A DNA stretch of 64,000 nucleotides. Source: Candidatus Omnitrophota bacterium (GTDB lineage Bacteria > Omnitrophota > Gorgyraeia > Zapsychrales > Fredricksoniimonadaceae). The position numbers and the translations under genes are program-made. The notes under the pieces are model-generated. The model was not told where the DNA came from. It saw nothing but the letters and a program-made list of their open reading frames with translations, and made no database searches. Location of the stretch: positions 742,711-806,710 of the forward strand of contig JBGAJA010000001.1 of NCBI GenBank assembly GCA_044225175.1, written 5' to 3'. Positions 17,572 through 54,088 of this stretch are shown here, in pieces (the first letter of the stretch is position 1; every line of letters begins with the position of its first letter).

Positions 17572-20500
17572 TTACGACTGATAAACTTCTTCAGGATGGT
17601 TTAGGCCAAGAAACTCTGAGACATTGGTCATTGGCTGAATGTTGGTGATGACGGGTTTAAAACCAGGGGCATTCTGCAGTTTCTGCAACATAGATGGATC
17701 GAGGTTAAATCTGATCTCTTCTCCTGCGTTACGAACTTCCAAAGGAGTTTGATTAGCTGTGAAATCAATACCGCCCTTATTCTGGAACCTCGTAGGTTCC
17801 AGTGGCTTGGTGAGTTGGGCTGGGTCCGTTTTGGGTAAGAGTGTTATGACGGAAAGGAATTGCATAAATCTTGAGAATTTTTTATCATGGGTGAATAAAT
17901 CGTTTTTTGTAAGAACACCAAATTCAAAAGAATCCTTTTGAGCATTACTCTCAAAATATTCAAATAAATGGGCAAGTTCATGAATAGTTGTATTAGTAGG
18001 CTTATGGATCGCTCCATTAGAAGAAATATCCATTCTATGAGCTAATTGAGCATTAATGTACACTTTAGAATGACCCGAACGTCTACTGAACAACCCTTGA
18101 AATGGAGCTTCTGCCTTTACTATAACAACCTGCTCAAACCCTAATTTTTGCCCAATCTTTTGCACGAGACTTAACAAACGCTGTTGTTGAGAATTTAATG
18201 CTTCCTCAGGAATAGCCAGTGATTCAGCACTTATCATGGTGGCAATATGAGACATTCGATTAGCAAGCGCTCCTCTTTGCGCACCCCAAGGATCAACTGT
18301 ATTCAAAGCCTGTTGAAAACCTGCTTCATCTATACCCAAACTCTTGGCTCGTCTTCTGGCTGCCTCTTCAGAAATAGCAGCCTGAGTTTTTATTCTGCGC
18401 ATTAAAAGACTATTTTTGCCATCTTTGGTCTGCACATTCAATTGAGCTAAAAATGGAACCAAAGACTCTTCGAAAGATCGATTTACACCCTTACCTTCAA
18501 ACCAGCCTTTAAGAGTAGTTAAATCTTGATGACTAATAAGATGACCAGCATTAATATCGTTAATCACATCAAAAAGAGACCTTTCTTTTGCCAGAGACCA
18601 TTGTGTTTGATTCTCTGGACTTAAAACATTCCAATAAGACTCTCGCGCAGAGGTTTCCCAATCTCGAGGGATTTGGCTAATATGAAAATCAGGGTTAGTT
18701 AATTCTTGATGGATTAGAGCTTTATAAAACTCGAGGGCCACATACTGTTGAATGACAGGCATAATGACGGCTTCTTGTTCAAATGAACTTCTATTTTGAA
18801 TCAAAGGCAGAGGGATCTGAATAACCAAACGAAGCTCCTCAATATGTTTACGTAAGGATTCTGGAATCAAAGCTAAGAATTCCTTCTTCAAAGACAAACT
18901 TTCAACCCTCAATCCCTTTTTATCAATGATTTGCAATGGCATATCTGAATCTTGAGTGGACCAAAGTTTCAAAGGACCATAGTTGTGCTGACCTATTTTC
19001 AAATCTATTTCTGTTAACAAATTCTTTCCTTTAACTTTGACCTGTTCTTCTGTGATACGACCTTCTTCCTTTTCCTTTTCAACAACCAATTTAAACTGCT
19101 CATTAGAGGCCATCCCTGCAAACATTTTCCATGTATGTTGGCCTAACATCTGGTCAAGCTCAGCAATAGAGCTTTGAGAATTTCTCATTCGTCTTATAAT
19201 GACTCCTTTCGAGAAATCTTGAGGATTGGCAATCCCAACCTTAACAACAAAAACTCGACCCAGAGTTCGATTGACCTTCATCTCAAAGACATAAGCTTCT
19301 TGGCCATTGTTAGCAATCATTTGCACACGATCAACACCAGAATAAATGGTGAATTTACCAGTTCCAAAAAAACCAACTGTTTGGCCATTTTGTTGGTCTT
19401 TTATTTTATTGGACTTGGGGATGAGTAAAGCCAATGCTTTTCCCAGAGGAGGCCCTTGACCATCATCCACAGCTTCTTCGACCAGATCGCCCGTTTGAAC
19501 ATCTTTGTAATAACGCACCAGTAACTTATTAGCCCCTGCATCAGAAGAGTTTTGAGGAATTTCAGCCGCATAGCGGCCTGCTTCACCTTGAACATTCACA
19601 TATTGGCTAATTTCCCGTCTAAGATTAGGATTATCGATCGCCATCATTTGGCCTATATGTTCAGGGGTAAATAATCCTGCAATATCATACATACTCGATT
19701 GATCTATTCCAGAGCGCTTGTCCGCATTGAATTGAGCAATGTTTTCAACAGGAATACCTTCCTCTTTTTGCATAAGCCATTGAATATCTTTGGGCAATTC
19801 CAAGTCTTTCGTTTGCACATGATCAACACGGTTAGTCAAGAAGTCCACAAAAAACTGGGCTTCGCCTAATTCTGTAGCAGAACGGCGATCTGTTGCAGCT
19901 AATACGATTTGTTCTAAAGGTGTATGACTAAAGGCTTCATACCAAAGGGCCAAGTAGGATTCTTTACCCTTGCCTTTTGAAAATAAAAGCAATTTGTTTA
20001 ATTGATCTACTGCAATATCAATACTTTTATTGCCATTTTTTGCGACAAGACTTAAGAATACTACCATCAACGAACAAATATGAACGCTTATCTTTTGTCC
20101 ATAAATTTCATATAAAAGATCCAACATTTCATTAATAGGCTTAACTAAATTGATGGAATGATCGGCTTCTATTTTTAAAGAATATGTCATTGCTAATAAC
20201 CAAGAAGGAATATCAGCATTCTCCAAAGAAATCTTTTCATTCATAGCCATTACAAATATTTGATGGCTTAAACCTCTATAAAATTGATCACCAATCTCAT
20301 TATCAACCAAAGTATGTTCACTGGAAGGAAATAAAGGATTGCCTTTCTTCTTTAAATCTTGTAAACCTCTCAACAGTAGACTCATCTTTTTTATAAAAGA
20401 TTCCACCATAAGGTCATCCAAATTGACATGTTCTTTACCATTAGCTAAAGCATCTTTAAAACGTGTTTTAATCTGCTCTTTTTGCTTAGAATAGAAATAC

Positions 20501-23500
20501 TTGAATATTTCTAATAATTTCCCCTTATCTTTGACTTGAAGGAAATCCAAAACAGGTTGATAGGCTTCTCTAGCACGGGCAACAATCTCATCTCTCTTGT
20601 CTGTCACCTGCTTCCAAAGCATCTCTGCCCTAATCCTTTGTTCTTCTGAAACATCGTTCGCAGGGTTATTAGAGTGTTCATGAGCATATTTTTGAGGATC
20701 AAAAAACCTTATTTCATCTGTTTTAGGATTATGAAAGATAAAAACATTACCATTGATTCCCTGCAATTCAAAATCAGCGGGGATGCCTTTGACATCAAGC
20801 CAGGGATTTTCATTGAAATGCAAGGCATAGCCACCAGAATCTAGAGATGTGAGAACATACCTATTATCTGTGGTGACCCATGAGTCTAACCTATAATCTG
20901 CGTACTTACGCGATAAACGACTGTCCTGAAAACGCATATCAAGAAGACTATTATTTAAAGTATCTTTCTTAAACCATATCCCCTGGGAATAAAACGCTTG
21001 GATCTCCTGATCAGGAACTAAAAGATCACTTGTACTAGAACGATTTAAGTCAAGCCAATAGGTAGTTTCTTGACCGCGCTGATTATCTTTAACGATATAA
21101 ATGTTTCCAACCAACATTCGAGTGGAATCTGGAGGAATCAAATTTGTGGGAACTTTGATAAAATGCTGATCTTTCAAGTGAACAATATCAATCTCTCCAC
21201 TTAGAACAAAGGCTTCCCAGTATTCAGGCAAAATTTGATCATAATTAATACTCACCATATCTCCATTACTCCTGATCTTCCAGATCGTGACATGGTATAA
21301 ATCATTAAAACTACACAAGAAAATTTCATCATTGTTTCTAACAATATTAAATCCTACCTTTGATTCACCAATAACCCTCCCATTCTTTATTAAATAAGCC
21401 TTGAGAGTAGTTTCATCCACAGACGAGTACAAAATAATTTTACCCGAGTGATCCAAAGCTAATTTTTTAGTTTGAATGGTTTCATTAGTTACGAAATTAA
21501 TAATTTGATAGTTTTTAATCCCTGTTTCAGTTGATGTAAACTCTTGAATAAGCACTTCACTGTCCTTTATGAAATATTGTTTTAACGTGTGGTTAGTAAA
21601 GTGTAGAGCATCTATTTCAGCTTGCTCGACACCTCCTCGATCGTTAACCGCTAGAAACACTGTCACTTTATCAGGTGAAGTCATCCTTGGTGTGAATACA
21701 ATAAATTTCCCAGAATCAGAAATAGACACTTCGCCATTAAGATTTTGGTTTATATATTTTTCATTTTTTAGATTATAAATTGATTTTCCATATGGACCTT
21801 CCAGCAGAACAAGCTCACCTTTTACTTCTTTAACTGTTGTATTAGGAGGCACTAAAAAGACGTATTGGGATGCATATAGGGTTTGTCGACCATCATTGCT
21901 TGTAACAACAAAAACTTCCGGCGATATTTCGAGATAATCAACATAAGATATTGGATTTAATTTAGGATTACTCAAATCTCTGAGCTCAATCTTCTGTCCT
22001 TTTCGAAAGCTAGTCCATCGAGTTGCTAAAACTAAAGGAGGATTTTCACTAAAAAAATGATCGATAGGCGCGGTTAGAATTTTGGTTGGTTCATCAGGAT
22101 CCACATAAAGCGCCTTGCCATTGTCTGGATTATAAAACACAAAATATTTGCCATCGAATTCGACTCGGGGATATTCTTTAACAAATACAGGAATTTCACC
22201 TAACCCTCCTGCCTTTAACCCATCACTAATCATATACCGCTCTGATATGGAATTCGCATAAACGATCTTATGGCTCGATTCATCATACGCGCCAGCATCA
22301 ATATTTGGATCTAAACGTGGATTCATCATTCCGAAACTTAAAGTACCATCTTCTAATAAAACAATAATAGTAACCCTAGAAAGAGTTCCAATTAATTTTC
22401 CTTTAAATTTAAATTTTGCAAGCGAATCCTTTAAACTCCATGCTATCGTGTGGGTTGGATTGCTTTCATCAATCAAGAAAGGAAAACGAGGATGCTCATA
22501 AATCTTTCCAAAAATATTTTTTAAATCAAACTCTGCGCCACCTACCCCTAAAATTCCTTCTCCATTAATCCATAAAGCCATAATAGAATTTTTGTAGTTT
22601 TCCGAAAGCAATACTTGAAAAGATTTATCTTTTAAAAAAAACTTATTGGATGCTGTTTTTAATCTAAAGGCCCTATTTCCATCTTTGTCAAAACCTAATA
22701 CAGCTTCTCTATATTTCTCTTCAGAATCATTTAACCATTCCTTCGTTTCTGTGTTATAAAGTCTCACCTGGTCCCCATACGAAAAAATAGCAACTCCAGA
22801 AAGCGGATCAATATAACAAGATTCTGCCTGCGCAATCCCAACTTGAAGATCAACATAATTAGCTGTACCAGAATTTGGTTTTCGTAATTCCATAATCGAA
22901 GAATAGGGATGGAAACTCACCTCTCCTTCAAGATCAGCTAATCTGAGTACTGACTTGTCTTTCATATCAAAAATATGATAGTCATTCATAATACCTTTTA
23001 TTTTAAAAACAATAAATCGACCGTCTGGACTTATTTTCATTTCTTTAATTTTCCTTAATTCTTGGATCTCTCCTTCAAGAAAATTAATATATTTAGATTT
23101 TTCTGTATCAAAAGCTGTATATGAACCATTACTTAACTGATAAAACACATGCCTTCCATCTGGACTTAATATTGGCTCACCTATAGCATCCATCGGGTTT
23201 TGCCATATCAGTTGACTACCCGACTTAAAGACTAAAGCATTGTGGTGGATAGGATCACCTTCAACAGCAACAGCATATTTGTACTCAACCCACATATAAT
23301 CCCCATGTAAAACTCGTATCTTTGTAATTGTTGTTGCTTCACCCACCCATTTAATCTTTTGCCCCGTTGCAATCTCATAAACGTCCCCATTTCTCAACAT
23401 ATATTTCATTCGCGCATCTGCAGGAACATACACTTGTTCTTGAGGTTGTGTCATATCTGGTGGGGTGGTTAAGAACTTCGAAATAGCTTGATTATCTGCA

Positions 23501-26500
23501 GCTCCATCATCGTAAACTTTTAAATCCGGCGTGATAGGAGTATTCATTTTAGCCGTGGGTTGCGGAGCCCCCATTTCGTAACTGGTTGCTGGCTCATCTT
23601 CAGCCAAAAGCTTGATACGTTCCCCTAAGCTTAATAATTCCGTATGTTCATCAGCGCTTAATGGTGATTTACGTCTTTGCTCTAAAAGGTCTAGAAATCG
23701 CTGGGCCATTTGTCTGGGTACAATGACATAGCCATTGGTTTTAATTTTAGGCAAATCGTGGTGTTTTAGGAAATCGAATGTTCTAACATCATAGTTCATA
23801 AACGCTCTTAATGCGTCTGGTGTGAAATCAGCCACGATCAATTCTAATGTCTTTGAACCAAGGGTTTGTTTACTGATTAAATGAAAGTCATTGTATCGAA
23901 CAATGGTGGCACCGATCGATTCAAGCGCTTTTTGGGCGCCCCATTCAAATATATCTTCATTAACAAAGAGAACTTCTTTGCCTTGCTTCATAAGTAATTG
24001 GCCAAAACCTTTCTCATTAGGCAAAAGCACATACTTACCACTAGACTGCAAGGAATTGATCAAACGAGCAATTTTCTTTTTGATCATTCGCTTGATATCA
24101 TTAACCACATAGGCATTTTCTTGATTATCAGCAATCAAAGCTTCTAAGCCAGCCACAAGTGTATTGATGTATTTGATCTTCTGCACATCTCCCATTGGAT
24201 TCTCAAGAATACCTTTGACCATTTGTTCAACAGCCAATTGCATAGGCCAAGGGTTTCGAGCGTCATGATCCGATGGAAAGATGACCTTGTCTCTGGATTG
24301 TTGAACATTGATAAGCGTAGCAAACTCAAGGGCCAAATTTCCTTCAATTACAGAATCAGGATGAGTGGTCTCAGAAAGAGGAATACGCATGATAACTTCC
24401 CCATTTCTAACAAATGCGACAGACCTGCCTGGCTCATGAACATGAATGACCTTGATCTTACGAAGCTCCTCTTGAATGTCTCCTTGTGATAAGCTTTCAG
24501 TTGCCTTTGTTCCCCCTTCACCCGGGACTAACATTCCAGATAACACAGAAATATTCATCCCACTGCCATTATCAACAACCTTGATTTCGTGTTCATTAAA
24601 ATCAATGTTAATCCATTTTTCTTCTGATTTCACAAGTTGGTGTCCACTTGGCACAATAAACTCTCTATTTTCCCATCCATTGATCTTTTCTGTCTGTTGA
24701 TTTAGCTGTGTGGTAATTTTGATGTTTTCTACAATTCCAAAACGACTATGAATATTGTCCTTTAACCATTTTAAAGAATTGACTTGGCCATCCTGTACAA
24801 TGCTTTTGACTTTTCCTATTCTTACAACAGTCCCTTGTGTCATTCCTGGAACTTGGGTGGCCTTAAGAAAATCATCATCAGTCATAGAATAAATTTGTAT
24901 TTGATAAGCCTTATGTTCATCTTTCATGACTGTTAAACGCCAGGCTGGTTTGCCTTCTTGTTTGGTTACAATATCCAATCGATCTCCTGGATCCTCCAAC
25001 CAATCTAAAATTTGTTTAACTCCCTTACCAAACTGACCAATAGAGCCGCCCAATGCATCAATGCTATTAGCAACTGCTTCAATAATCGATTGCCCCTTGG
25101 GGTTTCCACTTTGTAAGCCAATGACAGAATCTAACCGTATCTCTTCATTAGTTCCTGCCTTTAAAGATTTGATCATGGCCTCTGTATAGCCTTGTTTGGC
25201 TAAAGCTTCTAGTGTTTCGATCGGAGATTCCTGACGCTTAAGCTTTTTCTGTGCCCTTAAGAATTCTAAAAGGTTAACCCCATTAAAAGGCAAAGCATTC
25301 CAATAGCTGTTATCACCCACCGGGTTGTCGGGATCAATCCTGGCAGAAACCATGGCTAAATCGCCCATTAAAGCATCTTTGGATATGGATTGAACTGTTT
25401 TAAAAACTTCTCCTAATCCATATTTAGAAGAGTTCAAAGCTAAATCAGCTCCCCCAGAGAAATACTTTCGTGGAATTGATTGATGGGTTATAGGATCAGT
25501 TACTTCTTTGATATAGTTGTAGACGCCTTTTTTGAAAGCGGTCAAGTAACGTTGGTAAATTAATTCGATATCTGTAGGGGCAGGGCTTGTCCCTGCCCTA
25601 GATAGGGCGGGTGTAAAACCCGCCCCTACAATTTTATTCTGATCAATATACACCTTTGCTAAAATCGAATCCCTAATCTTCTTCTTGTACCAGGTAGCTA
25701 GAATCAAAGAACCATACACCTGCCTAAGCTGCACAAAGTTGGCCCCTTCATTGATCTCTTTGGTCAATTCAGGAATAACAACCTCCCGTATGATCTGACT
25801 GTGCAAAAAGGTGTCAGACACCTTTTTATCAACCCGCCCCTTCAAAAAGGTGTCTGACACCTTTTTGGAGGCTACGTAGTCTTCTTCCAACATCACCTTT
25901 AGCCTGGATTCCACTACATAGGCTGTTCCTGCTTTAGCATTCTCATAAACCACTGCCTTTTCAGGGACTATCCATACCTTGTTGAAAGTATTGACTGGGA
26001 TATTGGTTGTTCCATACCTTTTGGCGGATTCTTCATAGATTCTTCTCCAGAATCTCTTTCCTATCTCATCTTCTGGGTACATAAGGCTGGCTGTGATCTG
26101 CTTTAGCATGTAGTCCTGGGCTAATAGGTCACGTCCCATCTCGGTTTGGCCAAAGCTTTCTGGGACAATGCGGTTTTTCTCATAGGGACTTAGATTCACC
26201 CATAGGTCGGCTTCTGGGGTGGTTAAAGAGGCCAAAAAGTACTTGATTAGACGGCTGGATTCTTGCCTTAAATTATGTGCATCAGCGACGGAACGTGACC
26301 CTGGATCTAGGATAAAATCGAAGCGAAAGGGGTTATCTGGATGGACCTTGATTCCTTTGAGTAGAGGTGGGGTCACAGGCGGACTTAAATGCACTCTCAC
26401 CCCAGGCTTAGGCAAATGAATGTCCTGGGCGTACGTCGGCATAGGACCCATACTGGTCACAATAAAACTAACCAAGATGACAATGACTAATGGGGTTTTG

Positions 26501-26547
26501 AGCATATCTATATTACCTTTATATAAATATGCCATATATAAAGTCAT
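17572..26547 (-). CDS. Giant secreted multidomain protein (2991 aa): shared N-terminal module, two GHKL/Hsp90-sacsin-like ATPase-motif regions, PD40-like beta-propeller repeats, C-terminal HExxH, shared C-terminal module
   Basis: Single uninterrupted ORF. Probable true start at Met15 (MLKTPLVIVILVSFIVTSMGPMPTYA-QD signal peptide; AAAGGT ~10 nt upstream). Canonical Bergerat motifs in order: EIPQNSSDAG (I), VDDGQGPPLG (II), GFFGTGKFTIYS (III). An earlier EAVANSIDALGG / DNGSGM region. Repeats of SPDGR(F/H)(I/V)(V/F). HELAHLFEYFE near the C-terminus. Confidence 0.8.
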   Translation of the reverse strand: MTLYMAYLYKGNIDMLKTPLVIVILVSFIVTSMGPMPTYAQDIHLPKPGVRVHLSPPVTPPLLKGIKVHPDNPFRFDFILDPGSRSVADAHNLRQESSRLIKYFLASLTTPEADLWVNLSPYEKNRIVPESFGQTEMGRDLLAQDYMLKQITASLMYPEDEIGKRFWRRIYEESAKRYGTTNIPVNTFNKVWIVPEKAVVYENAKAGTAYVVESRLKVMLEEDYVASKKVSDTFLKGRVDKKVSDTFLHSQIIREVVIPELTKEINEGANFVQLRQVYGSLILATWYKKKIRDSILAKVYIDQNKIVGAGFTPALSRAGTSPAPTDIELIYQRYLTAFKKGVYNYIKEVTDPITHQSIPRKYFSGGADLALNSSKYGLGEVFKTVQSISKDALMGDLAMVSARIDPDNPVGDNSYWNALPFNGVNLLEFLRAQKKLKRQESPIETLEALAKQGYTEAMIKSLKAGTNEEIRLDSVIGLQSGNPKGQSIIEAVANSIDALGGSIGQFGKGVKQILDWLEDPGDRLDIVTKQEGKPAWRLTVMKDEHKAYQIQIYSMTDDDFLKATQVPGMTQGTVVRIGKVKSIVQDGQVNSLKWLKDNIHSRFGIVENIKITTQLNQQTEKINGWENREFIVPSGHQLVKSEEKWINIDFNEHEIKVVDNGSGMNISVLSGMLVPGEGGTKATESLSQGDIQEELRKIKVIHVHEPGRSVAFVRNGEVIMRIPLSETTHPDSVIEGNLALEFATLINVQQSRDKVIFPSDHDARNPWPMQLAVEQMVKGILENPMGDVQKIKYINTLVAGLEALIADNQENAYVVNDIKRMIKKKIARLINSLQSSGKYVLLPNEKGFGQLLMKQGKEVLFVNEDIFEWGAQKALESIGATIVRYNDFHLISKQTLGSKTLELIVADFTPDALRAFMNYDVRTFDFLKHHDLPKIKTNGYVIVPRQMAQRFLDLLEQRRKSPLSADEHTELLSLGERIKLLAEDEPATSYEMGAPQPTAKMNTPITPDLKVYDDGAADNQAISKFLTTPPDMTQPQEQVYVPADARMKYMLRNGDVYEIATGQKIKWVGEATTITKIRVLHGDYMWVEYKYAVAVEGDPIHHNALVFKSGSQLIWQNPMDAIGEPILSPDGRHVFYQLSNGSYTAFDTEKSKYINFLEGEIQELRKIKEMKISPDGRFIVFKIKGIMNDYHIFDMKDKSVLRLADLEGEVSFHPYSSIMELRKPNSGTANYVDLQVGIAQAESCYIDPLSGVAIFSYGDQVRLYNTETKEWLNDSEEKYREAVLGFDKDGNRAFRLKTASNKFFLKDKSFQVLLSENYKNSIMALWINGEGILGVGGAEFDLKNIFGKIYEHPRFPFLIDESNPTHTIAWSLKDSLAKFKFKGKLIGTLSRVTIIVLLEDGTLSFGMMNPRLDPNIDAGAYDESSHKIVYANSISERYMISDGLKAGGLGEIPVFVKEYPRVEFDGKYFVFYNPDNGKALYVDPDEPTKILTAPIDHFFSENPPLVLATRWTSFRKGQKIELRDLSNPKLNPISYVDYLEISPEVFVVTSNDGRQTLYASQYVFLVPPNTTVKEVKGELVLLEGPYGKSIYNLKNEKYINQNLNGEVSISDSGKFIVFTPRMTSPDKVTVFLAVNDRGGVEQAEIDALHFTNHTLKQYFIKDSEVLIQEFTSTETGIKNYQIINFVTNETIQTKKLALDHSGKIILYSSVDETTLKAYLIKNGRVIGESKVGFNIVRNNDEIFLCSFNDLYHVTIWKIRSNGDMVSINYDQILPEYWEAFVLSGEIDIVHLKDQHFIKVPTNLIPPDSTRMLVGNIYIVKDNQRGQETTYWLDLNRSSTSDLLVPDQEIQAFYSQGIWFKKDTLNNSLLDMRFQDSRLSRKYADYRLDSWVTTDNRYVLTSLDSGGYALHFNENPWLDVKGIPADFELQGINGNVFIFHNPKTDEIRFFDPQKYAHEHSNNPANDVSEEQRIRAEMLWKQVTDKRDEIVARAREAYQPVLDFLQVKDKGKLLEIFKYFYSKQKEQIKTRFKDALANGKEHVNLDDLMVESFIKKMSLLLRGLQDLKKKGNPLFPSSEHTLVDNEIGDQFYRGLSHQIFVMAMNEKISLENADIPSWLLAMTYSLKIEADHSINLVKPINEMLDLLYEIYGQKISVHICSLMVVFLSLVAKNGNKSIDIAVDQLNKLLLFSKGKGKESYLALWYEAFSHTPLEQIVLAATDRRSATELGEAQFFVDFLTNRVDHVQTKDLELPKDIQWLMQKEEGIPVENIAQFNADKRSGIDQSSMYDIAGLFTPEHIGQMMAIDNPNLRREISQYVNVQGEAGRYAAEIPQNSSDAGANKLLVRYYKDVQTGDLVEEAVDDGQGPPLGKALALLIPKSNKIKDQQNGQTVGFFGTGKFTIYSGVDRVQMIANNGQEAYVFEMKVNRTLGRVFVVKVGIANPQDFSKGVIIRRMRNSQSSIAELDQMLGQHTWKMFAGMASNEQFKLVVEKEKEEGRITEEQVKVKGKNLLTEIDLKIGQHNYGPLKLWSTQDSDMPLQIIDKKGLRVESLSLKKEFLALIPESLRKHIEELRLVIQIPLPLIQNRSSFEQEAVIMPVIQQYVALEFYKALIHQELTNPDFHISQIPRDWETSARESYWNVLSPENQTQWSLAKERSLFDVINDINAGHLISHQDLTTLKGWFEGKGVNRSFEESLVPFLAQLNVQTKDGKNSLLMRRIKTQAAISEEAARRRAKSLGIDEAGFQQALNTVDPWGAQRGALANRMSHIATMISAESLAIPEEALNSQQQRLLSLVQKIGQKLGFEQVVIVKAEAPFQGLFSRRSGHSKVYINAQLAHRMDISSNGAIHKPTNTTIHELAHLFEYFESNAQKDSFEFGVLTKNDLFTHDKKFSRFMQFLSVITLLPKTDPAQLTKPLEPTRFQNKGGIDFTANQTPLEVRNAGEEIRFNLDPSMLQKLQNAPGFKPVITNIQPMTNVSEFLGLNHPEEVYQS
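25573..25630. repeat. GC-rich double-hairpin palindromic element, copy G1, in-frame inside giant CDS
   Basis: TGTAGGGG-CAGGG-cttgt-CCCTG-CCCTAGATAGG-GCGGG-tgtaaaa-CCCGC-CCCTACA. Terminal inverted repeats TGTAGGGG/CCCCTACA and two internal stem-loops. Encodes ...PALSRAGTSPAPTDIE... Confidence 0.75.
25805..25866. repeat. Two 23-bp perfect palindromes (AAAAAGGTGTC[A/T]GACACCTTTTT) 36 bp apart inside giant CDS
   Basis: 25805-25827 and 25844-25866 are exact reverse complements of each other, and each is self-complementary. They encode the duplicated peptide KKVSDTFL. The spacer contains AACCCGCCCCTT, resembling half of the double-hairpin element. Confidence 0.7.
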
Positions 26548-28243: not shown

Positions 28244-29168
28244 ATGCCTTTTCCCGCAACTTATCTAACCATGTTTTAAACTTAGCACGGAACTGGTCAT
28301 CGAAAAGTTTATTATAAATTTCATTCTTTACATCTTCGATTCCCTGCTTTTGACCAAGAACAATATTTTTAACTTTAAACAAATAGACACCACTCTCTAC
28401 TTCCACTGGCTGAGAAACCTCTCCTTGTTTCAAAGAAAAAACTTCTTTTTCTATGGCAGGGACCATTTGACCTTGCTCAAGCATTCCAACGGAGGGAGCT
28501 TGAGAGTATTGCTTACTGACTTTTTCAAAATCTCCGCTAACTATTAAATCTTTTCTGGCTTGCTTGATTTTATTTAATGCATCTGATTTTCCATCTTTAA
28601 AAGAAATATAAATGGAATCCAAATCATATTGAGACTTACTTTCAAATTCATCTTTATGATTATTGTAATAAACTGTCACATCTTCAGGATTGACAAAATT
28701 TTTGTCTCTTACTTCAAGATCAACTTCATATTTACTTTTCATCTGATTAATAATTTTCTTTTTGATATCTGTGACCGTAACCCCCTGGGTATTGATTTCC
28801 GTTAAAAAAGCATCCTCCGAAGGATACCGACTTTTAATTTCCTTCAATCTTTTTTCAACAACTTCGCCCCTAATCTCAATGCCCTTTTTATTAGCAGCTT
28901 CTAAGATCAACTTGTCTTCAATAAGCTGGTTGACCCCACGCTCTTCGTAAGAAGCAATGATCTGTTGAATTTCTTCAGGAGTTTTATGTTCAACTTTTAA
29001 CTGGCGGTAAATACCAGCAATATAATCCTTTAAATCTTTTAGGGTGATGACTTCACTGTTGACGATTGCAACAATGGCATCATTAATAGGTTTAGCGGCA
29101 AAACTATTGGCAGGTATTATTACAAGCATTAAAACAATAAGAGCAGACATTCCTAATTGCTTAGTCAT
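28224..29168 (-). CDS. surA: SurA-like periplasmic chaperone / parvulin-type peptidyl-prolyl isomerase
   Basis: The ORF track extends to 29237. The likely true start is Met24 (MTKQLGMSALIVLMLVIIPANSFA signal peptide), ATG at 29166-29168 with GGAGA upstream. SurA N-domain-like region plus a C-terminal parvulin-like region. Confidence 0.75.
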   Translation of the reverse strand: MTKQLGMSALIVLMLVIIPANSFAAKPINDAIVAIVNSEVITLKDLKDYIAGIYRQLKVEHKTPEEIQQIIASYEERGVNQLIEDKLILEAANKKGIEIRGEVVEKRLKEIKSRYPSEDAFLTEINTQGVTVTDIKKKIINQMKSKYEVDLEVRDKNFVNPEDVTVYYNNHKDEFESKSQYDLDSIYISFKDGKSDALNKIKQARKDLIVSGDFEKVSKQYSQAPSVGMLEQGQMVPAIEKEVFSLKQGEVSQPVEVESGVYLFKVKNIVLGQKQGIEDVKNEIYNKLFDDQFRAKFKTWLDKLREKAYVEIRN

Positions 29169-31053
29169 TTTTCTCAATCTCCAATTCTTTCTTAAGATTC
29201 TCAATACATTCTTTAAGCATGCGGCAATACAAATCAAAACCTATGGCCGTAATAAAACCATGCTGCTGACTTCCCAGCAAATTCCCAGCCCCTCGAATCT
29301 GTAAATCTTCAAAGGCTATGTGGAAGCCTGCCCCTAAATCACTGTGTTTCTCGATTGCTTTTAATCTATGCTTGGAAACATCTGATAGCACTTCTTTGGC
29401 TGGCACAATTAAATAAGCCCAAGCTTGAATATCTAAACGACCAACTCGTCCACGCAATTGATGTAATTCAGAAAGACCAAACTTGTCCGCCCGGTTAACA
29501 ATCAATGTGTTTGCTGTTGGGACATCAATTCCCGACTCAATAATCGTCGTACAAACCAAAACATCTATCTTTTGTTGTAAGAATTTTAACATAATTTCTT
29601 CTAAAAGACGACCACTCATTTGCCCATGAGCGATCTCTATCCTGGCTTGAGGGGCCAAGGCTTTGACTCGATTGGCAATTGTTTCAATATTGTCCACACG
29701 ATTGTGCAAAAAGAACACTTGTCCCTTACGCTTTAATTCCCTTTTAATAGCCTCTTCAATAATCTCATCATCCCATTGAATAGTCTCTGTCTTAATGGCC
29801 AATCGATTGGTAGGTGGCGTTGATATTACGGACATGTCTCTTGCTCCCGAAAGCGCCATATACAAAGTTCTTGGAATAGGAGTAGCAGAAAGCGTCAAAA
29901 CATCAGCCAAAAGCCGAAATTGCTTTAACTTTTCTTTAGATTTAACTCCAAAACGCTGTTCTTCATCAATAATCACCAATTCAAGGTTCTTAAATCCAAT
30001 ATCCTTAGACAAAAGCCTATGAGTCCCTATCACAATATCGACCTTGCCTTCCCTAAGCTCTCTAACAATAACAGCCTGCTCTGCCTTGGTTCTAAATCTT
30101 GAAAGCATTCCCACTTTAACGGGAAAATTAGCCAGACGTTTAGAGAAATTGATATAGTGCTGTTCCGCTAAGATGGTTGTTGGAACAAGGATAGCGACCT
30201 GTTTGCCATCCATCACAGCCTTAAAAGCAGCCCGCATAGCTACTTCTGTCTTACCATATCCCACATCAGCACAAATGAGCCTATCCATTGGTCTTGGGGA
30301 CTCCATATCCGCCTTAACTTCTGCGGTGGACTTTAGTTGATCAGGGGTTTCCTTAAAAGGAAATGTAGCTTCAAATTCTTTTTGATATTCTGTATCTTTA
30401 GAAAATGCAAACCCACTTAATTGAGTGCGTAATGCCTGAATACGAAGAAGTTCAGCAGCCATAAGCCGCAATCGTTTTTCAATAGACTTTCTAGTTGATT
30501 CCCACTCTTTACTTCCTAATTTATGAAGACTTGTTGAACGCTTAGTAAAAGACACATATTTTTGGACCAAATGCACGTCATGCTTAGGAACAAAAAGCTT
30601 GTCTCCATCCTTGTATTCAATAATCAAATGCTCTTTTTTCTCATTATTTAATTCAAAGTCTCTTACGCCAACGAATCTTCCAATTCCATGATTATTATGG
30701 ACAACAAAATCACCTGTTTCGATATTAACAAAATTATTTAAAGGAATTTCACTAGAGAATACGGAGTTGGAAGACGTCTTAAAGGGAAGGATAATCACAA
30801 TCTGATGGTTTTCAATGATTTGACCACTGGAAAGGTCGAAACCTGAAATAGTTCGGATCACATCATCTTCTGTGTCAAAACGTATAGGAGTTTCAAAATT
30901 GGCTGGATAAATATCAAGAATTCCCCCGCGAAGGGCGAATTCTCCTTCTTTAAAGGCTTTGGTCACACGACTATAACCAAAAACCACTAAGGATTTAAGG
31001 ACATCATCAAAATTAATATTTTGACCTACAATAAATTCTAATGATTTAAACAT
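29161..31053 (-). CDS. mfd: Compact Mfd-like transcription-repair coupling factor / RecG-type SF2 translocase (630 aa)
   Basis: GEFALRGGILDIYP (Mfd D2-like), Walker A ADVGYGKTEVA, DEEQRFGV, TATPIPRT, and Mfd-specific DLQIRGAGNLLGSQQHGFITAIGFDLY. It ends ~20 aa after that motif, so the D7-equivalent region is absent. N-terminal D1 and most of D3 also appear absent. Confidence 0.75.
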   Translation of the reverse strand: MFKSLEFIVGQNINFDDVLKSLVVFGYSRVTKAFKEGEFALRGGILDIYPANFETPIRFDTEDDVIRTISGFDLSSGQIIENHQIVIILPFKTSSNSVFSSEIPLNNFVNIETGDFVVHNNHGIGRFVGVRDFELNNEKKEHLIIEYKDGDKLFVPKHDVHLVQKYVSFTKRSTSLHKLGSKEWESTRKSIEKRLRLMAAELLRIQALRTQLSGFAFSKDTEYQKEFEATFPFKETPDQLKSTAEVKADMESPRPMDRLICADVGYGKTEVAMRAAFKAVMDGKQVAILVPTTILAEQHYINFSKRLANFPVKVGMLSRFRTKAEQAVIVRELREGKVDIVIGTHRLLSKDIGFKNLELVIIDEEQRFGVKSKEKLKQFRLLADVLTLSATPIPRTLYMALSGARDMSVISTPPTNRLAIKTETIQWDDEIIEEAIKRELKRKGQVFFLHNRVDNIETIANRVKALAPQARIEIAHGQMSGRLLEEIMLKFLQQKIDVLVCTTIIESGIDVPTANTLIVNRADKFGLSELHQLRGRVGRLDIQAWAYLIVPAKEVLSDVSKHRLKAIEKHSDLGAGFHIAFEDLQIRGAGNLLGSQQHGFITAIGFDLYCRMLKECIENLKKELEIEKND

Positions 31054-31065
31054 ACTTTATTATAC

Positions 31066-33693
31066 TTAGCTTAAAGGAATATCCAAGAAGGTTTGTGGAC
31101 TTGCAAGTGGAACAATGCGAAGAATCATTGGCTCAATTCCTAAGAAATCCTCACCTTGAAATTGAGCCGTAAAGGCTGGAAATTTCATCTCAATATTTTT
31201 ACCTTCTTTAACAACATCTAATTCCATATTCTTTGAGCTCAAATCAACACCACCAGGATTATTAATCTTGGCAGCTTTTGAATGACTCATAGCAAAATCT
31301 ACTTTCTTACTAAAACCTTCGGGATACTGGGTTACCCCATCTTCTTCTTTTAAAATAATCTGATAAGTATTTCCTGATATTCTCTTATGGCTCAAATATT
31401 TCTCAACCAACTCTGCGAGCTCATCAAGTTTACTATTTAAATCATCAATCTCTACAAAATCATTCCACAGATCATGGGTTAAATTGTTAACTATGGAAGT
31501 CTTTATTCTATTTCTTAGTATTACCCTCTCAGCTTCTCCTATTGGTGGAGCCGTAAATCTAGAGCCTTTCAAAGATTCCGCAATACTATGAGGGTCATAT
31601 GTATCAATCCTCTCAAGCAATAATGAAATTATGTGTTGAACATCAGTCATTGACAAATTTCTTGATAAATCAAGGTTAAAATCACCAGCACCAAGAGGAC
31701 GAATAGTCAATAGATTAAGGGCTTCAAGAATATCGTCGTCTTTTACAAAGGGGAACGCACGTTTCAAGAATTTTCCAAGTTGTTCTTTAACATTTGATTT
31801 AGACATCAGCGGACTCATAGAAAAAAATTCTTTATGAGCTATATTAGCCAAAACAATACTTCTAATTTCTGCAGGGATGTCTGTACTTAGAATATAATTA
31901 GAATCTGTCTTAAAATTGATCGTATGCTTTAGTTTTTCTTGGATTCTAAAGCCCTCTATAGCTGAGCGGATGATCGTCAATATGGGGAGTTTTATGTTAC
32001 CATTGTTATTAAACAATCTTTCTCTGATAAGATTTGCTTCATCCTGAGTTTGATTCTCAAATAATCGATATCTATTATTCTGCATTTGATCAACCTTCTG
32101 CACTAAACGATCAAATAAATTACTATTTTTATAAAAGATCTTTTCTAAAAGCGGCAATCCTTCCTTATCAAGATAATCCGGGTTTTCAAAAGCCTCACGA
32201 AACAACCTGCCGATTACATCTCCTTTCTTAGCAAAACGTATAAATTGTTGAAAATCATAGAATGAAACATTTGAATTCATCGCAAAATCTTTAGATTTGT
32301 TATGTACTCTTGCCATATAGACACTAGCCATAGCCAAATCTCCATTGGCCCCCAGACTATCTTGAGAGGACGCCGTTGAAACACGCTGTAGTACATTCGG
32401 AATCCCCAAGTCTTGAGCTATGCCCCCTGAGAAGTACTTCCTAGAAATTCGCTGGTCTCGGGTTGATTCTAGATCTTCTTTGATGTAGTTAAATACGCCT
32501 TTTTTGTAGGCTTGGAGGTATTGATGGTAGATGGTTTCAACGTCAGATGGTGGGTTCCTCTGGGTCGCTTTCAGTTTCAACCCTGAGTCGCTTGGCAATG
32601 TGCTTGGGGACACGTTCCTGTTGATTTTGACCTGAACATGTCCCCTGGTCGGCGTTGTATAACCAATTCCTTCAATTTTCTTCTTATCTGCATACACCTG
32701 ATTCAATAATGTATTCTTAAGGGTTTGTTTGTACCATGTGGCTAGGATCATGGAATAGAACATTTGGCGCAAGGGGGCGAAGTTTTGGCCTTGGTTGACC
32801 TCGTTTTCTAATTCGGGCAATATGATGTCGCGGATGATTTGGTTTGCTAAGGCGTTGGGGGTGTTTCCCTGGGGTGCTTTCGCATTCAGCGCTGTCTCGC
32901 TTGGCAGCATGCTTGGGGACACGTTCTTATTGGTTTTGTAATGAACATGTCCCCTGGTTGGCGTTTGATTTTTTTCATTAGCTAGATAATCTTCCTCCAA
33001 CATCACCTTCAAATGCGCTCCAACGATATACCCTACGTTATTCCTCTCAAGAACCTTGGCTTTATCGGCTACGATCCATACTTTATTGAATGTATTCACA
33101 GGAATTTGGGTATTACCATAAAGGGCTTGGGCCTTTGCATAAACCTTGTCCCAGAATTTCTTGCCTAGGTCTTTCTCAGGATAAATTAGAGAAGCGGTTA
33201 ATTGTTTGAGGATGTAATCTTGGGCCAGCATGTCTCGGCCTAGCTCGGTGTTCCCTAGTTCTTCAGGAACTATTCTGTCTTTCTCATAGGGGGATAAATT
33301 CACCCAGAGGTCTTTTTCGGGGATAGTTAATGAGGCTAGGAAATATTTGATTAATTTGTTTGATTCGTCTTGTAGGGGTGACCCTTGCGGTCGCCCTTTT
33401 TGGACAGGGGCGAGCCCTGCCACTACGGACAATCCAGAATTCCCTGTATCCACGACGAAATCAAATAACAAAGGATTCTCTGGATGGACTTTCAGGCCTT
33501 TGATCATGACAGGCATATAGGCCTGGCTCAAAGACATCATTTCTCCAGGCACAGGCAATTGTAGGGGCGAGGTTCCCTCGCCCTTAATAGGCCTGGGAAA
33601 CCCAGCCCCTACATCAGCCCAAGTAGAGCGTGGCCCCAAAATGCCTGTAATTATGAAGCACAGGAGAATAACAACAGATGTCATTTTTTTCAT
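31066..33693 (-). CDS. Secreted protein (875 aa), paralogous to the N- and C-terminal modules of the 2991-aa giant protein
   Basis: Signal peptide MKKMTSVVILLCFIITGILGPRSTWA. N-terminal ~400 aa align with the giant protein (e.g. LIKYFLASLT(I/T)PE(K/A)DLWVNLSPYEK(D/N)RIVPE...NTFNKVWIV...LKVMLEEDY). The C-terminal ~70 aa are also related. Confidence 0.8.
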   Translation of the reverse strand: MKKMTSVVILLCFIITGILGPRSTWADVGAGFPRPIKGEGTSPLQLPVPGEMMSLSQAYMPVMIKGLKVHPENPLLFDFVVDTGNSGLSVVAGLAPVQKGRPQGSPLQDESNKLIKYFLASLTIPEKDLWVNLSPYEKDRIVPEELGNTELGRDMLAQDYILKQLTASLIYPEKDLGKKFWDKVYAKAQALYGNTQIPVNTFNKVWIVADKAKVLERNNVGYIVGAHLKVMLEEDYLANEKNQTPTRGHVHYKTNKNVSPSMLPSETALNAKAPQGNTPNALANQIIRDIILPELENEVNQGQNFAPLRQMFYSMILATWYKQTLKNTLLNQVYADKKKIEGIGYTTPTRGHVQVKINRNVSPSTLPSDSGLKLKATQRNPPSDVETIYHQYLQAYKKGVFNYIKEDLESTRDQRISRKYFSGGIAQDLGIPNVLQRVSTASSQDSLGANGDLAMASVYMARVHNKSKDFAMNSNVSFYDFQQFIRFAKKGDVIGRLFREAFENPDYLDKEGLPLLEKIFYKNSNLFDRLVQKVDQMQNNRYRLFENQTQDEANLIRERLFNNNGNIKLPILTIIRSAIEGFRIQEKLKHTINFKTDSNYILSTDIPAEIRSIVLANIAHKEFFSMSPLMSKSNVKEQLGKFLKRAFPFVKDDDILEALNLLTIRPLGAGDFNLDLSRNLSMTDVQHIISLLLERIDTYDPHSIAESLKGSRFTAPPIGEAERVILRNRIKTSIVNNLTHDLWNDFVEIDDLNSKLDELAELVEKYLSHKRISGNTYQIILKEEDGVTQYPEGFSKKVDFAMSHSKAAKINNPGGVDLSSKNMELDVVKEGKNIEMKFPAFTAQFQGEDFLGIEPMILRIVPLASPQTFLDIPLS
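32552..32656. repeat. ~105-bp direct repeat, copy A, inside the 875-aa paralog CDS, with internal inverted repeat GGGGACACGTTC...GAACATGTCCCC
   Basis: Near-identical to 32861-32966. Each copy encodes TPTRGHV..K.N.NVSPS.LPS. The internal ~12-bp inverted repeat could form a hairpin. Confidence 0.7.
32861..32966. repeat. ~105-bp direct repeat, copy B, inside the 875-aa paralog CDS
   Basis: See copy A. About 309 bp separates the copies. Confidence 0.7.
33371..33428. repeat. Double-hairpin palindromic element, degenerate copy P2, in-frame in the 875-aa paralog CDS
   Basis: TGTAGGGG-TGACCC-ttgc-GGTCGCCC-tttttgga-CAGGG-gcgag-CCCTG-CCACTACGG. Same termini and architecture as G1, with a degenerate 3' end. 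Encodes LAPVQKGRPQGSPLQDE. Confidence 0.55.
33560..33613. repeat. Double-hairpin palindromic element, copy P1, in-frame in the 875-aa paralog CDS
   Basis: TGTAGGGGC-GAGG-ttc-CCTC-GCCCTTAATAGG-CCTGGG-aaa-CCCAGC-CCCTACA. Encodes GAGFPRPIKGEGTSPLQLPV just after the signal peptide. Confidence 0.75.
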
Positions 33694-36601: not shown

Positions 36602-36622
36602 TATTGTGTTTCCTTTCGGTAT

Positions 36623-36681
36623 TGTTGGGGCAGGTTCTAAACCTGCCCTTTAATTGGGTGGGTTTGGAACCCACCCCTACG
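36623..36681. repeat. Double-hairpin palindromic element, intergenic copy I1, between rpsP and the trpE-like gene
   Basis: TGTTGGGG-CAGG-ttctaaa-CCTG-CCCTTTAATTGG-GTGGG-tttggaa-CCCAC-CCCTACG. Fills the whole intergenic gap. Stems differ from G1 by compensatory changes (CAGGG/CCCTG to CAGG/CCTG; GCGGG/CCCGC to GTGGG/CCCAC). Confidence 0.75.
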
Positions 36682-36682
36682 A

Positions 36683-38176
36683 TTAATGCGCCAATTCAAT
36701 CGCCCTAATCTGCGCCCGGGCTTTGTTGACTGTTTCTTGGTATTCTGTAGCTGGATTTGAGTCTGCCACCAAACCTGCTCCGGCTTGGACATAAGCTCGC
36801 CCGCGACAGACGACTATTGTACGTATAGTTATGCAAGTATCAAGGTTTTTCGAAAAACTGAAGTATCCGACCGCCCCCCCATAAGTGGCCCTTCTTTGGG
36901 CCTCTAAATCCTCAATAATCTCCATGGCACGAATTTTGGGAGCTCCGGAAAGCGTTCCAGCAGGAAATGCAGCTTGCAAGACATCTAAAGCATCTTTGTC
37001 GTCTCGGATTTGGCCTTGAACATTGCTGACAATGTGCATTACATGGGAATATTTCTCCACACTCATGAAATCCGAAATCTTGACTGTTCCCTGTTTGCAC
37101 ACACGGCCTAAATCATTGCGTCCCAAATCAACCAACATCACATGTTCAGCTTTTTCCTTAGGATCTGCTAAAAGCTCCTTTTCGAGGGCTTTGTCTTCTT
37201 CCTGGGTTTTGCCGCGATGGCGGGTCCCAGCAATTGGACGAGTCTCAACTAAGCCATCTTCACAGCGAACCAAGAGCTCTGGAGACGCTCCCACTAACTG
37301 TAAACCATCAAAATTTAGATAAAACATGTATGGAGAAGGATTTAATGCACGCAAGGCACGGTAAATATTGAATGGATCAACGGAAATTTTGGCTTCAAAA
37401 CGCTGGGATAAGACAACTTGGATAATATCGCCATCATAAATATGCTTCTTTGCCTTTACAACCATGTCTTCATACTTCTTTTGAGTACAATTGGACGTAA
37501 CTTTGAGGGATTTCTTTCCTGCCAGCTCAAGACTTTTTATGGCAATAGGCTGACGCAATTCTTTGATGAGACCATCAATCTTCTTGATTGCTTCGTTATA
37601 TTTCTTAATCTTAGTAGCCTGAGAATCACCTTTAGCTAAATGTACTGAGGAAACGACTTTGATGGTGTGATGACGATGGTCAAAGACGACCAAATCCTGA
37701 GCTAAAACCATGATCATGTCTGGAATATTCAAATCATCTTTGGCCTTAACAGGCAGACGTTCAAAGAAACGCACACAGTCATATGTTAAGAAACCAACCA
37801 TACCGCCATAAAATTTGGGTAATTGAGGGATATCAACCGCTTGATAAGCACTCATCAATTCACGGATGATTTCAAGTGGTGAAGATTGAATAGCCCTTTT
37901 TTCAGTGGTTGTCTTGCCTTTAACCACTCGAATAATTTGAGCATCTTGACCTTTAGAACGAATAATCAGCGACGGACTACGAGCTATAAAAGAGAACCGA
38001 GCGGTCTTCTCCCCGCCTTCCACAGACTCTAAGAGAAAAGAGTGCTTAGCTTTCTTAGCCAGATGCAAATAGGCAGAGGTCGGGGTCAAATAGTCCCCTA
38101 AGATTTCCTTGAAAACAGGAATCAAATTGCCCTTTTGGCTTAAATTTAGAAATTCTTCTTTTGTTAAATGATTCAT
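36683..38176 (-). CDS. Chorismate-binding enzyme: anthranilate synthase component I / aminodeoxychorismate synthase-like
   Basis: 497 aa. MLVDLGRNDLGRV and C-terminal chorismate-binding motifs (GGAVGYFS, AGAGLVADS). No adjacent amidotransferase subunit gene in the window. Confidence 0.8.
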   Translation of the reverse strand: MNHLTKEEFLNLSQKGNLIPVFKEILGDYLTPTSAYLHLAKKAKHSFLLESVEGGEKTARFSFIARSPSLIIRSKGQDAQIIRVVKGKTTTEKRAIQSSPLEIIRELMSAYQAVDIPQLPKFYGGMVGFLTYDCVRFFERLPVKAKDDLNIPDMIMVLAQDLVVFDHRHHTIKVVSSVHLAKGDSQATKIKKYNEAIKKIDGLIKELRQPIAIKSLELAGKKSLKVTSNCTQKKYEDMVVKAKKHIYDGDIIQVVLSQRFEAKISVDPFNIYRALRALNPSPYMFYLNFDGLQLVGASPELLVRCEDGLVETRPIAGTRHRGKTQEEDKALEKELLADPKEKAEHVMLVDLGRNDLGRVCKQGTVKISDFMSVEKYSHVMHIVSNVQGQIRDDKDALDVLQAAFPAGTLSGAPKIRAMEIIEDLEAQRRATYGGAVGYFSFSKNLDTCITIRTIVVCRGRAYVQAGAGLVADSNPATEYQETVNKARAQIRAIELAH

Positions 38177-52495: not shown

Positions 52496-54088
52496 ATGAA
52501 TTTTAACCCATACACAATCCCACCAATTTTGTGTTTGTTACTGGCTGTTATATGTGGTGTTTTTGTTATTGGTCAGAATCCTAAAGCAAAACTAAATCAG
52601 ATTTTCTTATTTATATGCCTAACATTTATAGGCTGGTTCTCCTTTTACATCCCCTTTAATTTTCCATACTCAGAGCATCAAATATTAATTTGGACTAAAA
52701 TTTCTTTTTGTTTTATTTCTTTCATTCCTATAACGACTTTCACATTTATTTCCACTTATTTACAAATCCCTAAGAATGAATTCTGGTTTAGAATAAACTC
52801 ATTAATTGGATTAGTATTCTCTATATTAAGCCTAAGTACTGATTGGATTATTAAAGGAGTCTTGCATTTGCCTTGGCATCCTTATCCTGAGGCTGGCATT
52901 CTTCATCCACTACTAATATTACACTGCCTTTCCTTAGCTTATTGGGGGATAAAATTGACACTTATTACGCTAAAAGATAAATCCCTTTCTGATAAGCGGC
53001 GCAATCATATCAAATACATGTTTATCGCCATGATTGCATTAACACCTGGAGCCATTGACTTTCTAGGAAATTATAATATTCAAGTTTACCAAATCGGATA
53101 TATACCGGTATCTGCTTATTTATTAATAACGACAATCGCCATCATTAAATATCAATTAATGGACATTCAGATTATATTAAAGAAAAGTCTTCTTTATACA
53201 ATTTTGATTGCCGTTATTGCCCTGTTCTATTTTCTTTCCATTTATGTGGCTGAACATGCTCTACAGAATATCTTTAAATATCAGTCTATTTTTATTTCTC
53301 TATTCTTCGCCACTATTATTGCTATTGTCTTTATTCCGATTAAAAACTTTCTAGAAAAGCATCTGTTTAATAAAAGTTTAGGGATGATTGCCGAAGAAAA
53401 TGATCTTTTAAGAGTGGAAGTTGCTCAAACTGAAAAATTCAAAATGGTAGCCAATCTGGCCAGTAGCATTGCCCATGAAATCAAAAATCCCCTGACTGCC
53501 CTTCAAACTTTTAATGAATATTTACCTCAAAAAAAGAATGATCCAGAGTTTTTTGATAAATACCAAACCATCGTATCGCAAGAGCTCAATCGTATTAATG
53601 GTTTAGCACAAGAACTTTTAGCTTTTGCCAAGCCTTGCCCCCCTCAAATCCAACAAGTCAATCCCAACGAAATCATTACTCAAATCATCCAATTAGTTCA
53701 TCAGAAATGCTCTGCAAATAAAATCAATATTGAAACTAAGCTAGAGGCCCATAACCTTATATCAGCCGACCCCAATCAACTCAAACAAGCATTGCTTAAT
53801 ATTATCCTGAACGCCATTGATGCCATGCCTGATGGAGGCATATTAACTATTTCTACCAGTGTCATTGCGAGCGAAGCGAAGCAATCTTTTACTATTAGCA
53901 TCTCCGACACCGGCTCCGGCATCTTCCCTAAAGATTTACCTCATATCTTTGAACCGTTTTATACAGGAAAAGAAAAAGGCACAGGATTAGGACTTGCAAT
54001 TACTCAAGGGATTGTTGAGAAACATGGCGGGAAAATATTCGTAGAAAGCAAAATTAACCAAGGCACAACATTTACTATAAAACTATGA
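52496..54088 (+). CDS. Sensor histidine kinase 1 of tandem array (multi-TM N-terminal sensor + HisKA + HATPase_c)
   Basis: 530 aa. ~6-7 TMs, H-box [14 protein letters not shown] boxes ([25 protein letters not shown]). 4-nt overlap with next HK. Confidence 0.85.

Follow-up and report, generated by a model that had tools for sequence, protein, structure and literature searches.

A pair of short palindromes is located inside a giant gene of a Candidatus Omnitrophota bacterium (GenBank assembly GCA_044225175.1, contig JBGAJA010000001.1), which we analyzed within a stretch of 64,000 nucleotides of the chromosome that is called the window in the following. The gene (17572-26547, minus strand) codes for a protein of 2,991 aa, and both palindromes lie in a hypervariable loop of its conserved N-terminal module, where they encode the duplicated peptide KKVSDTFL. 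With a probability of roughly 0.62, this doublet consists of selfish palindromes resembling repetitive extragenic palindromic (REP) sequences, which are kept in frame in a permissive loop. The two 23-nt palindromes and the duplicated peptide had already been reported in a preliminary description of the DNA, and both were confirmed, the palindromes at their coordinates and the peptide by translation of the coding strand. Copy 1, AAAAAGGTGTCAGACACCTTTTT (AAAAAGGTGTC-A-GACACCTTTTT; 25805-25827, no strand assigned), encodes the second KKVSDTF(L) at aa 241-248, and copy 2, AAAAAGGTGTCTGACACCTTTTT (AAAAAGGTGTC-T-GACACCTTTTT; 25844-25866, likewise without strand), encodes the first one at aa 228-235. 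In each palindrome, 11+11 bases pair around a single central base that is left unpaired, and only at this base do the copies differ. The 16-nt spacer between them, GAAGGGGCGGGTTGAT on the coding strand (25828-25843, minus strand), encodes the peptide KGRVD. In a repeat search, the inverted pair extends to 24 nt (25804-25827 and 25844-25867) with 100% complementarity and an interval of 16 nt separating the arms. As direct repeats, the copies are 39 bp (13 codons) apart from start to start and 96% identical with one mismatch, and the 15-16 nt that follow each copy are unrelated between the copies. That the two palindromes are exact reverse complements, as had been pointed out before, is true, but amounts merely to a centre A in one copy and a centre T in the other. 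The orientation of the doublet carries no information, because it is set by the centre base alone, and among seven doublets detected in metagenomes the centre bases are opposite in four and identical in three. Compared to the inverted REP doublets termed REPINs, the 24-nt inverted match is perfect, yet its orientation depends on that one base only. The units of the doublet are short hairpin-forming palindromes, like the imperfect ones of 20-40 nt that are typical for REPs and REPINs mobilized by REP-associated tyrosine transposases (RAYTs). On the coding (minus) strand the doublet translates to ASKKVSDTFLKGRVDKKVSDTFLHSQ within the open reading frame (ORF) of 2,991 codons, which is intact, and it is in frame and free of stop codons. 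Moreover, on each strand only a single frame runs through the doublet without a stop, and it is this frame that the gene uses; a single palindrome contains at most one stop codon across its six reading frames. The folding energy of the doublet is -31.9 to -33.0 kcal/mol compared to a median near -7 to -10 kcal/mol. When the 64-kb window was searched with AAAGGTGTCWGACACCTTT, allowing up to three mismatches, no copy beyond these two was found, with 0.02 copies expected from shuffled sequences.

The module carrying the doublet comprises a signal peptide and about 320 aa and is encoded at 25450-26547. The same N-terminal module is present in an 875-aa paralogue in the window (31066-33693, minus strand), which shares 47% identity over the aligned part and encodes the shared region at 32500-33693. 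For the first about 400 residues of the giant protein there are at least 1,467 homologues, and those that are named belong nearly all to Candidatus Omnitrophica/Omnitrophota; the comparisons given here cover the best 120 of them, and the alignment comprises 122 module sequences. The homologues have the signal peptide and the module of about 320 residues in common and differ widely in their total lengths and in the precomputed domains past the module. Among the domains seen beyond the module in the homologues P0001-P0120 are HAD, methyltransferase, HEAT, kinase and others. Neither the giant protein nor the 875-aa paralogue contains a Pfam domain, and a fold search of the PDB with the module gave no match. 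The core of the module is highly conserved, with 55-75% identity to the module of the giant protein among the aligned top homologues and 47 invariant columns among 98 aligned module sequences. In the alignment, this core (aa 45-366) is broken by hypervariable regions at aa 36-42, 85-92, 228-248 and 309-329, all of which vary in length as well as in content and coincide with the positions of palindromic DNA in the two genes of the window. We named the loop with the palindromes site 3 (aa 228-248 of the giant protein) and the following one site 4 (aa 309-329), and the two regions nearer to the N-terminus sites A and B. In the giant gene, the loop of site 3 spans 25798-25872 (minus strand, aa 226-250) and consists nearly completely of the doublet. 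Between the motifs LKVMLE[EQ]DY and QI[IV]RE, this loop has 16-65 residues among the homologues listed. Many of them show a consensus of 23-24 residues, LSLQKHEGIQS..Q.KDTNQLGS, which, judged from the sequences, probably represents the older state at site 3. An AlphaFold2 model of the module (mean predicted local distance difference test score, pLDDT, 72; predicted template modelling score, pTM, 0.71) has a helix at 221-233, a coil at 234-243 with pLDDT below 50 at 234-239, and another helix at 244-267 around site 3, and at site 4 a coil at 308-325 beside a stretch with pLDDT below 50 at 302-313. Both sites, lying in coil in the model, are thus predicted to be flexible connectors outside the core. 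In the preliminary description the inserts had been taken to suggest insertion hot spots or a tolerated surface loop, with a module alignment and a structure prediction named as ways to find out. This view is supported by the alignment of the 122 sequences, in which the four hypervariable regions overlap with the palindromic DNA, by the lengths of the loop, by the model, in which both sites lie in coil outside the core, and by the relatives described below.

The doublet is not the only strong hairpin in these loops. When 60-nt windows were folded across all 64 kb (median -6.9 kcal/mol), the five strongest hairpins started at 25571 (-38.5 kcal/mol; giant gene, site 4), 36621 (-36.3 kcal/mol; intergenic), 33556 (-33.8 kcal/mol; paralogue, site A), 25806 (-31.9 kcal/mol; the KKVSDTFL doublet) and 33371 (-29.6 kcal/mol; paralogue, site B), so that four of the five are located in the coding sequence of the two modules, which amounts to about 2.4 kb. 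The strongest one belongs to a GTAG-type double hairpin already called G1 in the preliminary description (25573-25630, minus strand), which occupies site 4 of the giant gene and encodes VGAGFTPALSRAGTSPAPT. Further double hairpins of the GTAG type are present in the paralogue at site A just past the signal peptide (33560-33613, minus strand; peptide VGAGFPRPIKGEGTSPLQ) and at site B within the module (33371-33430, minus strand; peptide VVAGLAPVQKGRPQGSPLQ), and one is intergenic (36622-36681, minus strand), directly 3' of the stop codon of ORF 36683-38176. G1 and these three elements share one layout, consisting of GTAGGGG, a first hairpin, a short A/T spacer, AGGGC with a second hairpin, and CCCCTAC, and their stems vary in sequence with the pairing kept. 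Because the intergenic copy closely matches the site-3 insert of the homologue P0080 (L131:4705-4764) from the Omnitrophota assembly GCA_015233165.1, the GTAG-type family is a dispersed one, with copies in intergenic DNA, inside genes and in more than one genome. At its own sites 3 and 4 the paralogue harbors another element of about 108 bp with the hairpin GGGGACA...TGTCCCC. One copy (32858-32965, minus strand; peptide TPTRGHVHYKTNKNVSPS...) lies between LKVMLEEDY and IIRD and therefore at the position homologous to the palindrome site, and a second copy with 79% identity (32549-32656, minus strand) precedes IYHQYL. The preliminary description had assigned 32552-32656 to the homologous site, which is the wrong copy, as that one lies before IYHQYL. 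It had also stated that the two genes carry differing inserts at two shared positions. Inserts at shared sites were indeed found, but the positions are four, with the paralogue being occupied also at 33560-33613 and about 33371-33430. In each of the six module genes for which DNA was analyzed, the strongest hairpin DNA of the module sits in the loops, and it belongs to several repeat families. From other assemblies, P0003 has a site-3 hairpin of -33.3 kcal/mol, P0033 has hairpins at sites B and 3 of down to -39.7 kcal/mol, and P0080 has a site-3 hairpin of -41.7 kcal/mol besides a second one of -30.7 kcal/mol. Furthermore, P0011 carries the REP hairpin TCATTCCCGCGAAAGCGGGAATCC (peptide VIPAKAGIH) at sites B and 3 (L132:6223-6262 and 6697-6736), and a third copy at L132:3702 falls within an unrelated RNA methyltransferase gene or at its end. 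P0038, which has the consensus site-3 loop of 24 residues and no strong hairpin there, can be used for comparison as a gene with an unoccupied loop. In the spacer separating the two palindromes, the 11-mer AGGGGCGGGTT is identical to a stretch at the 5' end of G1, which is located 230 bp downstream in the giant gene, and such an 11-nt match to G1 was reached by 8 of 20,000 random 16-mers of the window (p about 4e-4, post hoc). This gives a hint that site 3 may once have held a GTAG-type element, which would have been partly replaced by the palindromes with the spacer as its remnant.

The relatives show that the content of site 3 turns over and is not ancient sequence. In another genome (locus L126), the genes are arranged as SecD-SecF-Mfd-SurA-PdxA followed by a module gene, and this order matches the window up to the module gene. 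The site-3 loop of this syntenic gene contains a GGGGACATG...CGTGTCCCC hairpin, which belongs to the family found in the 875-aa paralogue of the window and is not the KKVSDTFL palindrome. Only one of the 120 homologues listed (P0001) contains the doublet peptide, and the other 119 are free of the doublet. Distant orthologues with the same sequence, which according to the preliminary description would have spoken against an insertion, were therefore not seen, with the exception of P0001, a probable paralogue from the same contig. The central region of P0001 is near-identical to that of the giant protein and its site-4 element is a different variant, and it is most likely a third paralogue on the contig of the giant gene. 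The doublet was probably copied along with the surrounding gene segment. Altogether, the doublet resembles the inserts of so-called decorated proteins in that it is in frame, stop-free and part of an intact gene with homologues that lack the element, and site 3 is a tolerant region in the same sense, being hypervariable in length and predicted with low pLDDT.

The palindrome itself occurs in other bacteria, where it is associated with a transposase. A scan with AAAGGTGTCNGACACCTTT over one genome per species yielded at least 118 loci, mainly of Pirellulaceae, other Planctomycetota, Thermoleophilia, Syntrophomonadaceae and Bacteroidales. Several of these genomes carry many copies, the arms have lineage-specific extensions, and doublets 48-97 bp apart recur. 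The seven loci from a scan of metagenomes for doublets lie on contigs with 68-71% G+C, have kept A5/T5 flanks and occur in clusters of two to five, and their spacers are unrelated without any conserved internal sequence. Long stop-free stretches are common in high-G+C DNA and do not separate intragenic from intergenic copies in these other genomes. From an all-against-all BLAST of 1,238 ORFs within 1.2 kb of palindrome loci, a Y1_Tnp protein emerged as the sole informative one of the recurrent neighbour families, the others being ordinary ones such as short-chain dehydrogenases and histidine kinases. This neighbour belongs to the Pfam family Y1_Tnp (PF01797, E 1e-11 to 3e-15), and in NCBIfam it matches “REP-associated tyrosine transposase” alone, with 62-81 bits at a cut-off of 80. 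The core AAGGTGTCNGACACCTT is present with 0-2 mismatches on both flanks of the RAYT-like Y1 gene in five loci from five lineages, namely Bacteroidales, Pirellulaceae, another Planctomycetota genome, Syntrophomonadaceae and Phycisphaerae, and the bracketing copies are within about 90 bp of the ends of the Y1 gene or overlap them. In a sixth locus, which is situated at a contig end, a palindrome copy lies 30 bp upstream of the Y1 gene. Two of three loci that were picked by transposase homology alone have AAAGGTGTCAG repeats just upstream and CACCTTT directly 3' of the stop codon, and the third one has the variant AAAGGGGTCA. A RAYT-like gene flanked by the repeat is thus seen in five loci of other phyla and partly in the three homology-picked ones, and no Y1 gene is present in the window. 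A similar arrangement has been described for self-complementary repeats, which flank or cluster near RAYT-like “TIRYT” genes and are closely spaced at some of them (Di Nocera et al., 2013, PMC3733652). When the five Y1 proteins flanked by the palindrome were used for a profile search, at least 7,921 matches were obtained, and the named ones among the best 120 are Planctomycetota. A search of the literature for core sequences of 13-15 nt found no paper containing the core. As a side observation, a RAYT-like ORF in a metagenome-assembled genome of Bacteroidales (L018:1129-2244) reads through two in-frame palindrome copies in its long C-terminal extension, which encode RCQTPL and WCQTLL, and four more copies are located within 200 bp of the ORF ends. 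Moreover, in loci of the Planctomycetota type (L023:7903-7919; L073:3648-3664) the transposase gene has at its 3' end a copy of the asymmetric variant AAGGTACCTGACACCTT, and upstream of the Y1 gene in L128 and L129 the repeats read AAAGGTGTCAGGTAC. Hence the Planctomycetota-type unit has two differing ends.

According to the explanation that we favor, RAYT-like Y1 (HUH) tyrosine transposases would spread short hairpin repeats, and insertions into genes would normally be lost, with the survivors being those that keep the frame, contain no stops and lie in a loop tolerating any flexible peptide. The KKVSDTFL palindromes would persist as such survivors, in frame and stop-free in a disordered permissive loop of a secreted module. 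Across the module family, different palindromic repeat families would repeatedly have occupied the four loops and replaced one another. The copies of this genome presumably arrived by transposase-mediated mobilization and not by local duplication, and the KKVSDTFL peptide itself presumably has no specific function. Several observations weigh against this explanation. The 64-kb window contains neither dispersed copies of the palindrome beyond the one intragenic locus nor a Y1 transposase gene, and no target-site duplication or flanking direct repeat was seen around the doublet. The KKVSDTFL palindrome does not have the GTAG or CGTC tag of classical REPs. None of the 118 genome loci listed and none of the seven metagenome doublets is labelled Omnitrophota, and among the best 120 of the at least 7,921 relatives of the Y1 proteins none is on the contig of the window and none is labelled Omnitrophota. 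Part of the sharing of an 18-nt palindrome across phyla could be due to convergence, given the many hairpin families in 185,000 species. The site-3 loop of the giant protein has 26 aa and the consensus loop 24 aa, so that the length is about equal and the arrival of the doublet looks like a replacement rather than a clean insertion. Finally, the doublets of the giant gene and of P0001 may go back to one event that was then copied by duplication or gene conversion.

Some of these points would also fit a local origin of the doublet by slippage, short duplication or hairpin-templated repair in a fast-evolving loop, in which case the match across phyla would be coincidence or convergence on an A/T-clamped hairpin. 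The single palindrome locus in 64 kb, the lack of a transposase in the window and of any Omnitrophota label among the 118 genome loci listed, the unchanged length compared to the consensus loop and the in-phase distance of 39 bp (13 codons) between the copies all agree with it. However, the 15-16 nt after the copies are unrelated and the doublet is therefore not a simple 39-bp tandem duplication. Furthermore, the identity to the transposase-bracketing repeat spans the full core of 17-19 nt plus the A/T flanks, the neighbouring loops of the same genes hold demonstrably dispersed elements, and every other module gene examined has an unrelated hairpin repeat in these loops, so that we consider a local origin unlikely. 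It is highly improbable that the doublet is a selected cis-acting structure of the mRNA or DNA, in which the perfect 24-bp hairpin or the two small ones would pause translation between folding units of the secreted protein, be cut by RNase, attenuate transcription within the gene or allow a gain or loss of 13 codons by recombination. In its favor, neither arm contains a mismatch, the hairpin is with -31.9 to -33.0 kcal/mol far stronger than the median, the identical peptide is kept in P0001, and the direct repeats, being 39 bp apart, could lead to a deletion that keeps the frame. However, homologues carry unrelated elements or none and therefore no conserved structure is required, a consensus scan calls no terminator-like site, and what is conserved is the position of the loop and not the sequence within it.

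The coding sequence of the modules amounts to about 2.4 kb and contains four of the five strongest hairpins of 64 kb, and this extreme concentration could also be taken as a sign of adaptive diversification. Exposed loops would then be under diversifying selection, e.g., for surface recognition or interaction with phages or hosts, and the palindromes would have been recruited or targeted as stop-free cassettes. In agreement with this, the module is secreted and fused to diverse C-terminal parts, its conserved core (55-75% identity) is interrupted by four hypervariable loops, and the composite-looking site, with a spacer resembling a GTAG-type end, suggests repeated hits at one spot. Nevertheless, there is no direct evidence of selection, the same pattern would result from tolerance together with attraction of new elements to existing hairpins, and the DNA basis is six module genes only; we regard this explanation as very unlikely. 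The four loops might even be preferred landing or retention sites for several palindromic families, and new elements may home to existing hairpins, for which the composite spacer gives a hint, but we regard this as quite doubtful. If it were true, an exposed domain would owe its variation in length and sequence mainly to selfish hairpin DNA, and the loops would form a repeat-driven hypervariable-loop system. With its at least 1,467 homologues and four fixed loops, the module can serve as a natural test case for the question of whether the elements are just tolerated, or targeted or selected.

In-frame selfish palindromes inside genes are known from Rickettsia, Pseudomonas, Opitutus and other bacteria, and the basic finding is therefore a further case of this known phenomenon, now in an Omnitrophota-like genome. 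As with intragenic REPs, “REP-decorated” proteins and Rickettsia palindromic elements (RPEs), the elements described here are short in-frame palindromes in intact genes, often dimers and sometimes present twice per ORF, and they are tolerated in variable regions. Peptides encoded by REPs of Pseudomonas putida resemble the VGAG...PAPT-like peptides of the GTAG-type elements. In contrast to intragenic REPs and RPEs, the host is Omnitrophota-like and the KKVSDTFL palindrome is untagged with respect to GTAG and CGTC, the elements are concentrated in a single phylum-wide domain family, at four fixed loops, and not spread over unrelated genes, and several unrelated repeat families occupy the same loops. 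This concentration of hairpins in one domain family is notable and unusual compared to known intragenic repeats. The REP/REPIN-RAYT systems and the “TIRtrons” have in common with the palindrome that its core flanks RAYT-like genes in five lineages, as in REPtrons and TIRtrons, and that elsewhere it occurs as dispersed singlets, doublets and clusters. Different from REP/REPIN-RAYT systems, the window is devoid of a transposase and of dispersed copies. The neighbouring G1-type elements start with GTAGGGG and thus like the tag of classical REPs. For intragenic REPs it has been reported that more than half are dimers encoding 20-30 aa (PMC3733652). That the palindrome core is common to RAYT-like loci across at least five lineages of very different G+C content is noteworthy. 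In genome annotation it should be taken into account that KKVSDTF, KGVRHLF, KRCQTPF and similar peptides are translated from the palindrome repeat.

Other classes of elements were also considered. With about 63 bp of a non-coding-type unit and perfect 24-nt terminal inverted repeats, the doublet looks like a bacterial miniature inverted-repeat transposable element (MITE), but it has no target-site duplication, doublets elsewhere have no conserved interior, and each “terminal repeat” is itself the repeated unit. The doublet does not qualify as a MITE, as inverted ends are present but a flanking direct repeat is missing and the spacers elsewhere are unrelated. An intrinsic terminator, which would have a G+C-rich stem, a loop of 3-8 nt and a T run behind it, was rejected because the scan of 25300-26300 calls no terminator-like site, an invertible switch because the 16-nt spacer is too short, and a CRISPR-like array because of the irregular spacing. 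An assembly artefact was rejected as well, since the reading frame is unbroken and a second gene encodes the peptide, too.

The surroundings of both module genes are those of a bacterial chromosome, with genes for KsgA, PdxA, SurA, an Mfd-like helicase, SecDF and a GatA-like protein, and the window has a G+C content of about 38%. The Mfd/TRCF-like gene (29161-31053) is short and encodes 630 aa, and its counterpart in the syntenic locus (L126:6241-8058) encodes 605 aa; a typical Mfd/TRCF protein has about 1,100 aa. The short protein contains the UvrB-interaction, CarD and helicase domains and is without the long C-terminal part. Four tandem ORFs of 530, 529, 531 and 535 aa are located on the plus strand at 52496-58870, overlapping by 4 nt, which looks like an array of paralogous genes in the part of the window with the lowest G+C content (31-36%).

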